Shown: one piece after another, positions 2,531-14,496 of the stretch | Numbering within the stretch: the first letter of the stretch is position 1 | Layout: every line of letters begins with the position of its first letter | Assembly (NCBI GenBank): GCA_000092065.1 | Contig: CP000583.1 | Source: Ostreococcus lucimarinus | Lineage: Eukaryota | DNA: 64,000 nucleotides | Direction: 5' to 3' (one strand) | Translations under genes and position numbers: made by a program | The notes under the pieces: model-generated | Seen by the model: only the letters and a program-made list of their open reading frames with translations | Told to the model about the DNA's origin: nothing | Database searches by the model: none

Positions 2531-3244
2531 CTATGACCAACTTCTCGTCTTCGCGTGCACGCGAGCCACATCCGTCATGTAATCCCCGCTCAATCGAGCG
2601 TACGCCGTGCGATTCGCGCGCTCGATCTCTCGTCGAGCGCGCTCCTCGTCACCATTAATCTCATAAAATAACCCCAAATATAACGCGCTATAAAACTCAT
2701 CGCTCGCGTTCGAGCGTCCGGCTTCGCGCAGGCGCGTCGCCGCCTCTTCCGATCCCTCCGCGAACAGCGCGAAAACGCTCGACATCACCGGTCTCGAATC
2801 CCGACCGGTGATCAACATATTTTCTCTCGCGTACGCGATCCCTTTCTCCGGATCCATCGCCTCCGAGGCGAAGCACCACACGCTCTCCTCCGTATCGTTC
2901 GGGTTCTGCGCCACGTCCAGTCGAAACTGCTTCGCCGCCTCCTCGTACGCCCCCGCGTAGTACAGCGCCAGCCCGCGCTGCCACATGTACGCGCTAAACC
3001 TCTCATCGCTCGCGATGGCGTCGTCGAACGCGTCGATCGCGCCTCTGACGTCGCCTCTGATAAACTCCCTCGCGCCGCGCTTGATCTTTTCGCTCGCCAC
3101 CGATGCGTTCGCTCGCTCCGCGCGCGCGCACGTCGCCACGATCGCCGCCGCGACGCCGCGCAGAGCGTCGCGACGATTCGTTCGTCGTCTCGCGTCGCGC
3201 GTCGCGCACGCACGCGGCGCGCGCGCGCCGCGAGCGGCGGACAT
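2531..3244 (-). CDS. Small TPR-repeat protein with an Arg/Ala-rich N-terminal presequence (possibly organelle-targeted)
   Basis: A 237-aa ORF has a true ATG at 3244. It contains TPR-like helical repeats (YMWQRGLALYYAGAYEEAAKQF…, FYSALYLGLFYEINGDEERARREIERA). Convergent AT-rich 3' ends with the helicase gene. Confidence 0.55.
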   Translation of the reverse strand: MSAARGARAPRACATRDARRRTNRRDALRGVAAAIVATCARAERANASVASEKIKRGAREFIRGDVRGAIDAFDDAIASDERFSAYMWQRGLALYYAGAYEEAAKQFRLDVAQNPNDTEESVWCFASEAMDPEKGIAYARENMLITGRDSRPVMSSVFALFAEGSEEAATRLREAGRSNASDEFYSALYLGLFYEINGDEERARREIERANRTAYARLSGDYMTDVARVHAKTRSWS

Positions 3245-9515: not shown

Positions 9516-12500
9516 CTAAATCGTTTCACCCGTGGCCTTCTCGTATTGCGTCTTGAGAGCGACGACGAGACGCCAATCATCCTTCGTCAATTCTTCACGG
9601 AAGCTTTCCTTCAACATGTCGATCGACTCGCGCGTCATTCTCGATACGAGCTGATCTTTATGATCAAAATGGCGACCGTAAAGTCGCGAAGATTCACTGG
9701 GCGTTCTCGGTTCGATCTTCATCGCCACAGATTGACCGGCAGTTGCCTTCTTCACCTCCTTGTGGTTGAGTTCCATCGAAGCAATCTTACCAATGTCGAT
9801 GTAACCTTGCGATGGGATGCAAATTTGCGTCCCCACGCGAGCGACCCCCTTGACAATGTCAACACCAACGACGATGGGATCGCGCTTGTTGAACACGCAG
9901 TTGGGCATGATTTGCAAGATGCAAGGGAAGTTGACGTGCTGCGACGCGGCTTCACGCTTGTCTGCCTTGACCTTTTCCATGTACGCCGTGAATTGATCAA
10001 ACAAGTGGTAGATGATGTCGGCGGTGAAGATGCGAACGTTGAGCTCTTCGCCCATTGCGTGCGCCTCCTTCGTCACCGGCACGTCAAAAGCCAGAATAGT
10101 AGCATACTCGGGCTTTTTGCGCTCGTGCATGACGCTCGCACCCATGACGTCCCGTTTGTTTACCGGGCCAATGGCGATGCCGGCGACGGGAATTTTGACC
10201 GCGTCAGATTTCAAGAACTCCAACAAGGCTTCCAAAGAACCGAGCGTAGACGCCTGCACGTACACGCCTTCGCCACTCTTATCAACACGAGCAAGCACGC
10301 CCTTCATATCACTTAAAACCTCTTCCCTGAGTTCCATTTCGTCGTCTTCAGGATCGAGCACCAAAAGAGACGTACCTGCGACAGCTTTCTCTAATCCAGT
10401 GGCGACGATCTTGATCCCTTGAGCGCCTTCGATTTCCTTGTGATGAATGTAGCTTCCCTTCACCCGCATCTCTCGCATGGGCTGCGGTGTAAGTAATGCA
10501 CGAATTTGAGTCGTAATCGCCCCCTCTAACCCAGCAACGACGATTGTCTGTCCTTCCTTGAGCTTACCGTTGATGAGAATGACGTCAACGCTCGTACCGA
10601 GACCTTCGATCATCTTCACTTCAAGCACGGTACACTGTACGGCAGGCACGTATTGAATGCGCTCGTTCATGCGATTTTGGCACAAGTCAACAAGCGTTTG
10701 CAAAATGTCCGGCATCCCCTCACCCGTAATAGCAGAGGTTGGGATGATGTTGATGAAAGTACGTGGGTCCGGGTTCTCCCAGTACTTCGCCACGTTCAAA
10801 CCTTGCTCAGCAAACTCGATGACGATCTTGTCGTAACGATCTTGGAACTCGCGTCGAGCGTGATCCTTTTGTAAGGACAAAGTCTCCTGTGTTGGGAAGT
10901 TGGTATTTTCCGTCCAGTCGTACATGCGATCGATTTTGTTGAGCGCAATCACAAAAGGCGTCTTTCGCGATCGAAGCATGTTCAACGATTCTATCGTTTG
11001 CGGCTCTAAGCCGTGCATGATATCAACGACGAGAATGGCGAGATCACAAAGTGACGAACCTCTCGAACGCAAGTTTGTGAAAGACTCGTGTCCTGGGGTA
11101 TCGATAACGAGCAAACCGGGAACTCGCAAGTCCCATTCACCCTTGTTTAGCTGCGCCGTTCGCTCGAGGAGAGACTCCTTGGGAATAAAAGTCGCACCAA
11201 TTTGCTGCGTAATACCGCCAGCTTCTCCGTCTTGGACGTTGGTTCGTCGAATGTTATCCAATATCTTCGTCTTACCGGTATCAACGTGCCCCATGATGCA
11301 TATAATTGGGCAACGAAGCTTGCTTGGACTGCGCTTTGCCTTGGCCAACTCGAAGCGTGCCAAACGCGCAATCTTTGCCGCCTCCATGCGCTCTTCGTGT
11401 TCACGTTGACGGACGTCATCGCTATCCTCGCGGTAATCCGAGCTATCGGAGTACTCAGAGCTGTCGCTGTCGGAATCAGAGTCAGAATCAGAGCCAGAAT
11501 CAGAGCCAGATCCTTCGTCAGATTCTTCGTCAGAGCCCGAAGCGTCAGCAGCTTCCTTGGCTGCGGCGGCCTTTTCCTTGGCTTCCTTGGCCCACGGCTT
11601 TTCAGCCGCAATCTTCGCCTTGATCGCCTTCTCCGCCGCGAATTTGGCCGCAGCCTCAGCCGCTTTCTTCTCCGTCTCGTGACGTTTCTGCTCGGCGGCC
11701 TCTTTCTCCGCCTTTTCCTTAGCCAAGCGCTCCTCCTCTTCTTTCTGACCCGGAAGGATAATCTCCTTGTCGTCCCAGTCTTCCGCTTCCCAGTCATCGG
11801 CAGCGTCGTCATCTTCAGCTTCGGCGGCGAGTCGGGCTTCTTCTTCAGCTTTAGCCTTCGCTTCAGCCTCAGCACGCTCTTGTTGTTGCTTTCGACGCTC
11901 TTCCATCTCTTTCTTCTTTTTGCGATCGTCGTAAACCGGACGTTTCGGCTTGATAACTTCGTCGAGTTTATCTGCGTCAATCCCAGACTTGGCTAACATT
12001 TGCTGGCGCATCGCGGCTAAACGCGCTTGTTCCGCCTTTTGCTTGTTGCTGAGAAGTTTGCCTTCGGCACGGAGGCGCTCCTTCTTCTCCTTCTCTTTTT
12101 GTTTCTTTGCCTCGCGACGCGCTTCCTCCTCTTCTTCTTTTTGTTTCTCAAGACGTTCAGCCTCCTCCGCCGCGGCTCTTGCCTCGGCTTCAGCTTTGGC
12201 TTGAGCCTCTTCCACCTCCTTACGCTTTTGCATTTCTGCTTGAAGGGCGAGAATTCTCGCACTTGGCGCGCCGGCAGACTTTTGCTTCTTCTCCGCCTCT
12301 GCCGCCGCCTTGGCCTTGGCTTCCTTTTCTTTTTGCTTCTTCTTGAGCTTCTTCTTTTGCGACGCCGAAAGCTCTTTGCCATCTTCAAGCGCATCGCCGT
12401 CATCATCATCATCATGATTATTGCCATCGGTAGCAGGCGCCGCATCGGCGGCATCACCGCCAGCTGCGGCTTCCGCGGCTTCGCGCTCGGCTTTCAATCG

Positions 12501-13778
12501 GCGCTTCTTTGCCGCTTTACTCTCGCCAGCCGGCTCTTCTGGCTTGGCCTCGATTTTGATGTCAAGCTCGGCCAAAAGAGCGTCGAGGTCTTCCTCGTCG
12601 TCGGCCGCTTGCTTACCACCTTTTTTCTTTTTCTTCTTGTCCTTCTTCGAGCCACCAGTTTCGTTGGCGACGAGTTCGGGTTCGGGTTCGGGTTCGGGTT
12701 CGGGCGTCTTTTCCTTCTTCGTCGTCCCGGGCGCTTTCAAAGGCACATCATCGCCGATGGAAAAAGCAGACTTATCGAGCTCGTACACGCCATCCGCGCT
12801 ATCGGCCCAACCCATCTCCACCGCGCTGAGAATCATACCTTCACTCATGACGCCGCGCAACGGCGTCTTGTCGATGACTTGGCCGCTGGCGGGGATTTTC
12901 ACGCCGACGCCTGCAAAAATCACCAACAAACCTTTTCTGGCGTTGGCACCACCGCACACGCACCGTTTCGGTTCGTCGCCGCCGAAATCGACGGTGCAAA
13001 CTTGCAGACGATCCGCCATCGGGTGCTTGCTGCATTCGATGATCTTACCCACGACGAGTTCGGGTTCGGCGACGAGCTTTTTCTTTTTCTTCTTTTTGAG
13101 ATCAATCGCGACTTCCACCGCCGCGGCTTCCTCGTCGGCATCCATGAGATCGGCAAAGCTTCCCTTCTTCTTCTTCTTTTTGTCTTTCGTGTCCGCGGTG
13201 CGAGACTCCGAGGCTTCTTCGTCGTCCTCCGCGTCCTCGTCTTCGTCGTCCGCCATCAAAGCCGCGAAGCCGCCCTTTTTGGATTTCTTCTTTTTATCCT
13301 TCTTCGGCTTGACATCCGCCTCCATCTCCTCTTCCTCGTCGTCATCATCGCCACCACCCATCAACGGATCGTTCACGTCGTCGTCCGACCCCATCAACGC
13401 CGCGAAACCACCTTTTTTGGATTTCTTCTTCTCCTTCTTCGGCTTCGTCGCCGCCGCCGCCGCGCGCACCTCCTCCTCCGACGCGTCGTCCGCGTCATCC
13501 GCGTCGTCATCCGACCCCATCAACGCCGCGAAACCTCCCTTTTTAGACGTTTTCTTCCCCTTCCTCGGTTTCACCGCGCGCGTCTCCCCCTCGTCCGCCT
13601 CCTCTTCGTCCGCCTTCTTCGCCGCCGCCGCCAGAGGGTCCAAATCCTCGTCCGAGTCCTCCCCTCGTCCTCTCCCGCCCCGCCCGCCCTTGCCCTTCGC
13701 CGCCTTTCGCGCCTTTTTCATCTCCGTCTTCGACATCGCTCTCGCGCCGTCGTCCGCGTCTTTCGCGCCGTCGTCGCG

Positions 13779-13816
<38 letters not shown>

Positions 13817-13898
13817 CCGAGGGATCGACCCCGTCGTCGTCGTCGCTCGAATCGTCCCCTCGCTTGCCCTTGCGCCCGGCTCGCTTGCCCTTCGCCAT
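9516..13898 (-). CDS. Eukaryotic translation initiation factor 5B (eIF5B) with a Myf/EMAP-II-type tRNA-binding domain embedded in its charged N-terminal region
   Basis: The C-terminal GTPase region has GHVDTGKT, DTPGH and NKID. The long K/E/D-rich N-terminal region is typical of eIF5B (start MAKGKRAGRKGKRGDD, ATG 13898). The same ORF contains an OB-fold tRNA-binding domain (…VVGKIIECSKHPMADRLQVCTVDFGG…RGVMSEGMIL…) at about 12725-13075. The ORF-track extension to 14456 is an R/A-rich artefact. Confidence 0.85.
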
Positions 13899-14034
13899 CG
13901 CGCGGCGCGCGGGAACGTTCTCTCTCGCGCGCCGTCCGTCGTCGGCGCGCGCTCGCGCGTCGCGCGCGCGTCGCGGTGTGTCCATCGCGCCGTCGCATCT
14001 TTTAAACGTCGAGACATCGCGACGCGCGCGCGCG

Positions 14035-14496
14035 ATGCGCGCCGACGCGCGCGCGCTCGGCGGCGACGACGACGCGCGCGACGTCGCGCGCGACGTCGAC
14101 GACGGCGACGCGACGCGCGCGATGGCCGACGCCGACGCCGACGCCGACGACGCGCGCGAGGACGCGACGACGACGACGACGACGACGCCGCCGACGAACG
14201 AACGACGCGACGCGCGCGAGCGCGCCGGCGACGTCGCGCGCGCGTCGCTCGCGATCGCGCTGCTCGCGGTCGCCCTCGCGAGGCTGCGACGGTGGGCGAG
14301 GGGCGACGGCGACGCGCGCGGCGGCGCGCCGGGACGCGTCAGCAGGCGCTTCGCCGCGCGGCACAGGAAGTGTAATCGATGCGGCGCGCGCGGGTCGGCG
14401 GTCAAGGTGAAGTGCGAGCGGTGTAAAAGGTGCTGGTACTGCTCGCAGACGTGCAAGAAAGCGGCGTGGGCGCTGGAAATTTGCGAGTGTTGTTGA
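14035..14496 (+). CDS. Small MYND-type zinc-finger protein (about 153 aa), divergent from eIF5B
   Basis: The C-terminus CNRCGARGSAVKVKCERCKRCWYCSQTCKKAAWALEICEC fits the MYND Cys spacing, though the conserved His is not obvious. ATG at 14035. The upstream part of ORF 12421-14496 is antisense to eIF5B and low-complexity, so it is rejected. Confidence 0.4.
   Translation: MRADARALGGDDDARDVARDVDDGDATRAMADADADADDAREDATTTTTTTPPTNERRDARERAGDVARASLAIALLAVALARLRRWARGDGDARGGAPGRVSRRFAARHRKCNRCGARGSAVKVKCERCKRCWYCSQTCKKAAWALEICECC

Follow-up and report, generated by a model that had tools for sequence, protein, structure and literature searches.

Within a 64,000-nucleotide stretch of the Ostreococcus lucimarinus genome (assembly GCA_000092065.1, contig CP000583.1; hereafter the window), we examined the gene of the translation initiation GTPase eIF5B. 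Structure prediction portrays the eIF5B of this Ostreococcus-type green alga as having one folded oligonucleotide/oligosaccharide-binding (OB) island in a disordered, highly charged N-terminal region. The island is a member of the tRNA_bind superfamily (PF01588), of the type represented by domain B2 of the bacterial phenylalanyl-tRNA synthetase (PheRS) beta subunit, PheT, and by the bacterial protein YtpR, and it may serve eIF5B as a tethered binder of tRNA 3' ends.

The domain spans residues 276-391 (12726..13073, minus strand; residues are numbered from the ATG at 13898), as delimited by an AlphaFold2 (AF2) model that took 25 algal orthologues as input. In this model the segment forms a five-stranded OB barrel with extended L12 and L45 loops and block-mean predicted local distance difference test (pLDDT) scores of 85-93. 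The tRNA_bind profile of Pfam matches residues 281-377 (12768-13058; profile positions 1-90 of 96) with 63.6 bits and E = 1.9e-17, the gathering cutoff being 27 bits, a score that marks the tRNA_bind domain in eIF5B as real, far beyond chance. An earlier note on this DNA had proposed just this profile search, having placed a tRNA-binding domain at 12725-13075, almost identical to the modeled fold, and the peptide that it quoted is found letter for letter at residues 281-363 (12810-13058). The note had also set the domain between a K/D/E-rich N-terminal region and the GTPase core. It does lie within the disordered region, about 275 residues from the N-terminus, though not at the border with the core: about 465 residues of charged low-complexity sequence follow before the G domain. 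In a second AF2 model, covering residues 100-400, the OB domain was the sole ordered element, with pLDDT below 55 upstream of it.

The assignment of the domain to the PheRS-B2/YtpR subtype of tRNA_bind follows from four kinds of comparison and from a missing extension. A sequence search of the PDB returned residues 45-147 of the E. coli PheRS beta subunit (E = 4e-18) and the YtpR-like protein 3bu2 (3e-13), with weaker matches to the C-terminal domain of MetRS (MetRS-C; 9e-06) and to the EMAP-II-like TyrRS C-terminal domain (TyrRS-C) and Arc1p (3e-4 to 4e-4). Among NCBIfam models, pheT_bact (TIGR00472) matched over its positions 45-150 with 95.9 bits and YtpR with 92.6 bits, and both metG_C_term (24.9 bits, cutoff 116.65) and the Trbp/CsaA-type model (22.6 bits, cutoff 150) stayed below their cutoffs. 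When 1.84 billion representatives were scanned with HMMER, the nearest relatives outside eIF5B were mostly proteins of ~760-870 residues, matched at residues ~45-145 with 37-53% identity, and the two nearest relatives examined (P0199 and P0203) score as full-length PheT. Foldseek aligned the OB model with E. coli PheRS beta at 1.3 Å over 104 columns; all top matches of the model in the structural search belong to the tRNA_bind family, and its nearest neighbors are of the PheRS-B2/YtpR subtype. In neither sequence nor structure were EMAP-II, Arc1p or TyrRS-C the closest neighbors. The C-terminal pseudo-dimer extension that is the hallmark of EMAP-II and Arc1p is not present after residue 391, where (PE)5 and lysine tracts follow that are predicted to be disordered. 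By these comparisons the domain is neither of the EMAP-II/Arc1p type nor of the Trbp/MetRS-C type. As a whole protein, eIF5B is neither PheT nor YtpR, because it misses the equivalog cutoffs of both families (95.9 bits against 402.65 for PheT, 92.6 against 100 for YtpR) and because the remaining parts are missing, Pfam finding neither B1, B3-B8 nor any other PheT domain in it.

The OB domain is part of the same open reading frame (ORF) as the GTPase and, in relatives, of the same mRNA. The ORF runs without interruption across 9516..14456 on the minus strand. We place the start at the ATG at 13898, because homologues of 1458-1460 residues match from there with 99% identity and full coverage, one of them annotated as translation initiation factor 5B. 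The coding sequence is thus 9516..13898 (minus strand), a single open frame of 1460 codons and a stop; the earlier note had the one continuous ORF and the same ATG right, and counted 1461 residues. Just upstream of this ATG, at 14018-14280, the DNA is ~70% GC and holds degenerate CG-rich repeats with periods of 3, 12, 21, 27 and 41 bp; the frame stays open through this stretch to a TTG at 14456, and full-length homologues begin at ATG 13898. In the one polypeptide Pfam recognizes five domains: after tRNA_bind come the G domain (GTP_EFTU, residues 864-1074, 10677..11309, minus strand; E = 1.2e-36) and, within residues 1101-1398 (9705..10598, minus strand), domain II (1101-1176, 3.8e-07), domain III (IF-2, 1193-1303, 7.7e-20) and domain IV (GTP_EFTU_D4, 1325-1398, 6.2e-14), the last being the canonical contact of eIF5B with the acceptor end of initiator Met-tRNAi (PMC4342817). 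The best named matches of the whole protein are eIF5B proteins, among them those of O. tauri, Mantoniella and Marchantia (E = 0), which argues for orthology to eukaryotic eIF5B and identifies it as a bona fide member.

Selection was gauged in codon alignments with two Ostreococcus orthologues from independent assemblies, L002 and L001, which are 93% and 76% identical, respectively. The ratio of nonsynonymous to synonymous substitutions (dN/dS) of the OB domain was 0.15 against L002 and 0.07 against L001, and the alignments had no more than one gap column there; for the low-complexity N-terminal segment the ratios were 0.52 and 0.22, with many indels, and for the GTPase core at most 0.02 against either. 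These ratios indicate purifying selection on the OB domain and, since they were obtained in the eIF5B frame, argue that the domain is translated in that frame. Moreover, in transcriptome-derived orthologues a single product holds both OB domain and P-loop, as seen in Stichococcus MMETSP1473 (P0064) and in another MMETSP transcript (P0181).

We also considered whether the OB domain could belong to a nested separate gene, a spliced-out intron or a chimeric assembly. Such an artefact could draw on two long ORFs on the opposite strand (12027..14375 and 12421..14496), and the transcript evidence comes from relatives, not from this exact genome. However, the eIF5B frame is continuous and open through the domain, the low dN/dS holds in that very frame, and over 70 orthologues from independent assemblies have the domain in frame in the same way, including the transcriptome-derived ones that join OB domain and P-loop; the opposite-strand ORFs, for their part, translate to low-complexity strings rich in R, S and F. 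An intron, nested gene or chimera is thus very unlikely, to the point of being hardly credible. The antisense ORFs themselves (plus strand, 782 and 691 residues, opposite the eIF5B N-terminal region and of R/S/F/L-rich low complexity) are in all likelihood not genes but by-products of the sense strand, whose codon content is biased and repetitive.

The fusion extends across the green algae. Among the best 120 eIF5B matches, 74 carry the OB domain, always N-terminally, at residues ~27-398. Every domain-bearing match with a source name comes from a green alga, and every green-algal eIF5B recovered carries the domain. They represent the Mamiellophyceae (Ostreococcus, including O. tauri, Mantoniella and many marine metagenome clusters), the Trebouxiophyceae (Coccomyxa, Symbiochloris, Elliptochloris, Stichococcus and Parachlorella), the Chlorophyceae (Volvox africanus) and, among streptophyte algae, the Zygnematophyceae (Closterium and Mesotaenium). 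The domain is not present in the other 46 of the 120, which include proteins from Marchantia, Riccia, rice, barley, oak, Euphorbia, many fungi, one tick and a few sources without a name. In line with the earlier note, the fusion is therefore unusual, being missing from the liverworts, angiosperms, fungi and tick among these matches; the note's further suggestion of a lineage-specific innovation proves too narrow for an arrangement common to Chlorophyta and zygnematophyte algae, and its attribution to a stramenopile was mistaken, the nearest named orthologue being the eIF5B of the mamiellophyte chlorophyte O. tauri (XP_022838602, in the 90% cluster of the 76%-identical match). Because it is common to both groups of algae, the fusion would date far back among green organisms, with an apparent loss in land plants. 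On the simplest account, the green lineage gained a bacterial-type domain by a single ancient fusion, and the land plants lost it on their stem. A neighbor-joining (NJ) tree on ~110 columns groups all algal domains together, with a few PheT sequences straying into the clade.

The domain is of a bacterial type. When bacterial genomes were scanned with the single protein, one match came up, in an alphaproteobacterial metagenome-assembled genome (MAG) at 44% identity, and no donor lineage could be named from it. A word-indexed homologue search with the domain only returned one fragment; a profile search from 19 algal domains returned just short fragments and small stand-alone OB proteins and did not widen the taxonomic survey. 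Stand-alone OB proteins of ~135 residues that resemble PheT B2 occur in Patescibacteria (Doudnabacteria and relatives) and in a Verrucomicrobiae MAG, and one 913-residue PheT bears an additional N-terminal OB copy (these proteins being P0398, P0399, P0410, P0417, P0247 and P0204). In bacteria too, then, the PheT-B2 OB subtype is a mobile module.

What the domain might bind can be approached through a co-crystal of Trbp111 with tRNA (2024), in which the L12 and L45 loops of this OB class hold the single-stranded CA at the 3' end of mature tRNA (PMC11286949). The contact residues are E32, K33, K73, R75, I77, F78, S82 and M85 in Trbp111, with D226, S227, K269, V271, M273, R274, S278 and M281 as their equivalents in Arc1p (PMC11286949). 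We aligned Trbp111, E. coli Trbp, P. abyssi MetRS-C, E. coli PheT B2, 25 algal domains and 78 PheT B2 domains, and in this alignment the Ostreococcus equivalents of the eight positions are D296, R297, D343, T345, L347, R348, S352 and M355. The L12-loop motif HPMADRL (residues 292-298, 13005..13025, minus strand) holds D296 and R297, which align with E32 and K33 of Trbp111 and D226 and S227 of Arc1p at the C75 site. The L45-loop motif LRGVMSEGM (residues 347-355, 12834..12860, minus strand) holds R348, S352 and M355, which align with F78, S82 and M85 of Trbp111 and R274, S278 and M281 of Arc1p, that is, with the C75 stacking contact and the A76 pocket.

Six of the eight CA-end positions are conserved (D296, R297, L347, R348, S352 and M355), and PheT B2 conserves them as well. 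Counted over the algal eIF5B domains, S352 occurs in 25/25, M355 in 24/25, R or K at position 348 in 25/25, a hydrophobic residue at 347 in 25/25, D or E at 296 in 23/25 and R or K at 297 in 21/25; the position of Trbp111 R75 varies, and it does so in Arc1p and E. coli Trbp too. In the whole 25-sequence set, 16 positions are kept in at least 88% of the sequences and seven are invariant. One position sets the algal domains apart: W364 (12807..12809, minus strand) is W in 25/25 of them and in 0/78 PheT B2 domains, where its counterpart is L, I, F or M. By this alignment, W364 is a shared derived character of the green-algal eIF5B OB domains.

The regions on either side of the domain are of a different nature. 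Upstream lies the N-terminal disordered segment (residues 1-275, 13074..13898, minus strand), 49% of which is K, R, D or E and for which AF2 gives pLDDT below 55 over residues 100-275. It includes four repeats (residues 121-252, 13143-13538, minus strand), each of which leads from a lysine tract through GGFAALM (GSFADLM in the last copy) to an acidic tract, and which in the DNA are partly a 126-bp tandem repeat. We considered whether these repeats are linked to the OB domain and rejected the idea: GFAAL-like motifs occur once or more in the N-terminal regions of fungal, plant and tick eIF5B that have no OB domain, and AF2 does not dock the repeats on the OB. Given its presence in OB-less eIF5B, GGFAALM looks like a widespread short linear motif of eIF5B. 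Downstream, a second charged low-complexity linker (residues 392-855, 11334..12725, minus strand; 50% K/R/D/E) joins the OB domain to the GTPase core. It opens with (PE)5, encoded by five in-frame copies of a 6-bp unit (12674-12704, minus strand), and a lysine tract; it also holds the motif DLDALLAEL (residues 437-445, 12564-12590, minus strand), which is kept in green-algal and land-plant eIF5B, often in two or three copies, and is largely missing from the fungal sequences examined. A 12-bp unit repeated three times in frame (11473-11510, minus strand) lies in a Ser/Asp-rich tract just before the GTPase core. In the Ostreococcus protein a K7 tract stands directly before the OB domain and a KKDKKKKKK tract follows ~25 residues after it.

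Yeast and human eIF5B can dispense with the N-terminal region. Across lineages, eIF5B N-terminal regions are extended and differ in sequence and length (PMC4342817), and native proteomics of human, Arabidopsis and Chlamydomonas has reported truncated eIF5B proteoforms that correspond to a processed disordered terminus (PMC11297038). In algae, such processing could release or remove an N-terminal fragment that bears the OB domain.

We explain these observations best by an ancient fusion of a PheRS-B2-type OB domain to eIF5B, in which the domain, on a flexible tether, binds the 3' CCA end or the acceptor arm of tRNA with low affinity; we give this explanation about an even chance of being right. 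Judging by the same fold in Trbp111, Arc1p and the appendages of synthetases, tRNA binding would be the most likely role of the OB domain. Held on its tether, it might bind the single-stranded 3' CCA end or the acceptor arm weakly and so raise the local concentration of tRNA around eIF5B, and it might help to pass the acceptor (CCA) end of Met-tRNAi to domain IV during subunit joining. The lysine tracts on both sides could touch the body of the tRNA without specificity, a part that the basic middle domain plays in Arc1p. There are precedents for both parts: fusions of the OB fold lower the Michaelis constant (Km) for tRNA and raise local tRNA concentration at enzymes, and in Arc1p a basic region next to the fold touches the tRNA body in addition (PMC11286949).

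A number of observations weigh against this explanation. The position of Trbp111 K73 and Arc1p K269 is acidic in 15/25 algal domains, the net charge of the OB domain is about -3 (although, when net charge was compared across members of the fold, the RNA-binding ones were not separable from the others), and the lysine tracts beside it are not universal, many chlorophyte orthologues having acidic flanks. The conserved loop residues are equally conserved across PheT B2 domains and may therefore reflect requirements of the fold, not RNA binding. As far as the accounts of PheRS-tRNA complexes that we retrieved go, the tRNA contacts are ascribed to other domains and none by B2 is mentioned, and the sole reported partner of YtpR is a protein, GatB. 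The 3' end of Met-tRNAi is esterified, and tolerance of an adduct there is merely suggested for Trbp111 (PMC11286949). Finally, exact monophyly of the algal domains was recovered in just 23/100 NJ bootstrap replicates (the algal clade reached a Jaccard index of at least 0.9 in 63/100), so that the argument for a single origin leans on the common position in eIF5B and on W364.

Several of these points would suit an OB domain that is functional as a docking module for a protein or for the ribosome or its rRNA, with a synthetase, an amidotransferase-like factor or a ribosomal site as conceivable partners. To the retrieved descriptions of bacterial PheRS-tRNA complexes without a contact between B2 and tRNA, to the GatB-bound relative YtpR, to the lost lysine and to the slight acidity of the domain, docking adds W364, an invariant candidate surface residue that PheT does not have. 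Against it, the CA-pocket loops are the best-conserved blocks, with S352, M355 and R/K348 essentially invariant, and tRNA is the ligand of every experimentally studied free or appended member of the fold cited in PMC11286949. We regard docking as doubtful and nonetheless keep it as a serious rival because of the accounts of B2, the YtpR-GatB pair, the PheT-wide conservation and the acidic flanks. Far less probable is a neutral relic, a functionless fragment of an endosymbiont or horizontally acquired pheT caught in a tolerant region. The lineage-to-lineage variation of eIF5B N-terminal regions and their dispensability in yeast and human, both noted above, would allow for this, as would the land plants, which lost the domain and kept eIF5B; but the domain has held the same position across Chlorophyta and Zygnematophyceae, 16 positions including the seven invariant ones have been retained, and its flanks evolve three times faster, with many indels, where the OB domain shows low dN/dS and hardly a gap. 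A further alternative starts from the earlier note, which had named the C-termini of MetRS, Arc1p, Trbp111 and EMAP-II as matches: a generic module of the Myf/EMAP-II/Arc1p type, recently inserted into eIF5B in one stramenopile lineage. Superfamily membership speaks for it, since Pfam tRNA_bind includes those proteins and its threshold is passed, and the matches to MetRS-C, EMAP-II-like TyrRS-C and Arc1p are weak but significant; however, PheT and YtpR score 96 and 93 bits against 22-25 for MetRS-C and Trbp/CsaA, the EMAP-II C-terminal extension is missing, the organism is a chlorophyte and the fusion spans Chlorophyta and Zygnematophyceae, which makes this alternative extremely improbable.

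A bolder reading can be imagined, which we consider a long shot: the green-algal OB domain would actively sense or carry tRNA 3' ends and give eIF5B a second, IF2-like hold on tRNA, either by recruiting or retaining Met-tRNAi without eIF2 or by binding uncharged CCA ends. With uncharged ends as ligand, subunit joining would be tuned to the charging state of tRNA. In either form, initiation would have a control point that is not found in land plants, fungi or animals, made from a domain salvaged from a bacterial-type, possibly organellar, PheRS beta subunit, one that eukaryotes would otherwise have given up.

A full-text literature search found no paper that describes an eIF5B-tRNA_bind fusion, and neither a survey of translational GTPase diversity (PMC4342817) nor the list of fusion hosts in the OB-fold paper (PMC11286949) mentions one. 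The architecture is visible in databases, since a public protein collection tags these proteins with PF01588. As a kind, then, the tRNA-binding OB appendage is known; what is new here is the host, an initiation factor, in which it is apparently unstudied. Known OB appendages sit on aminoacyl-tRNA synthetases and their cofactors, where they lower tRNA Km and gate the flow of tRNA, and one in a universally conserved initiation GTPase would extend the principle to initiation. The domain sits in a stretch that is commonly written off as disordered and dispensable. It amounts to a natural experiment on the role of the eIF5B N-terminal region, and its 116 residues, with defined point mutants, offer a clean, testable handle. 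Both Ostreococcus and Chlamydomonas are genetically tractable. The domain is also a case of the PheRS B2 fold standing by itself, a fold whose role within PheRS the literature that we retrieved on that enzyme does not settle, and an example of how a bacterial-type domain that eukaryotic PheRS enzymes are not known to have was re-used elsewhere in the translation apparatus.

Elsewhere in the window, ARAGORN reports a 94-nt 'tRNA-???' with a four-base anticodon (aacg) at 3122-3215 (minus strand), which is probably either spurious or a tRNA that is odd or has an intron.

Set beside canonical eIF5B (yeast Fun12, human and land plants), the algal protein has orthologous G, II, III and IV domains, with a core identity of 55-63% in most matches, and its N-terminal region is likewise long, charged and disordered; GFAAL-like motifs are widely common, and DLDALLAEL is common with plants. 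It differs in the OB domain itself, the sampled proteins from outside the green algae having no comparable folded domain in this region. By every measure the closest relative of that domain is B2 of bacterial PheT (residues ~45-150), with 40-53% identity and 15/16 of the highly conserved algal positions shared. Eukaryotic cytosolic PheRS beta subunits are said to do without B2, reportedly on the evidence of a human PheRS structure. In a PheRS review, B2 is described only in the bacterial beta subunit, and mitochondrial PheRS is monomeric universally among eukaryotes. Unlike B2 in PheT, the algal domain stands alone between disordered linkers in a translational GTPase, without B1 or B3-B8, and it carries W364 in place of the Leu or Ile of PheT and, at the position of Trbp111 K73, an acidic residue in place of Lys. 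YtpR/TapR (3bu2; B. subtilis YtpR) is a different host, a bacterial protein of ~200 residues with its own N-terminal domain and bound to GatB, under whose family cutoff of 100 bits the eIF5B domain falls with 92.6. With Trbp111, Arc1p, AIMP1/EMAP-II and the C-terminal domains of MetRS and TyrRS, the algal domain has in common the superfamily PF01588 and, largely, the CA-pocket residues. If it binds tRNA as they do, it would be one more generic tRNA-binding OB fold added to a translation protein, raising the local concentration of tRNA.

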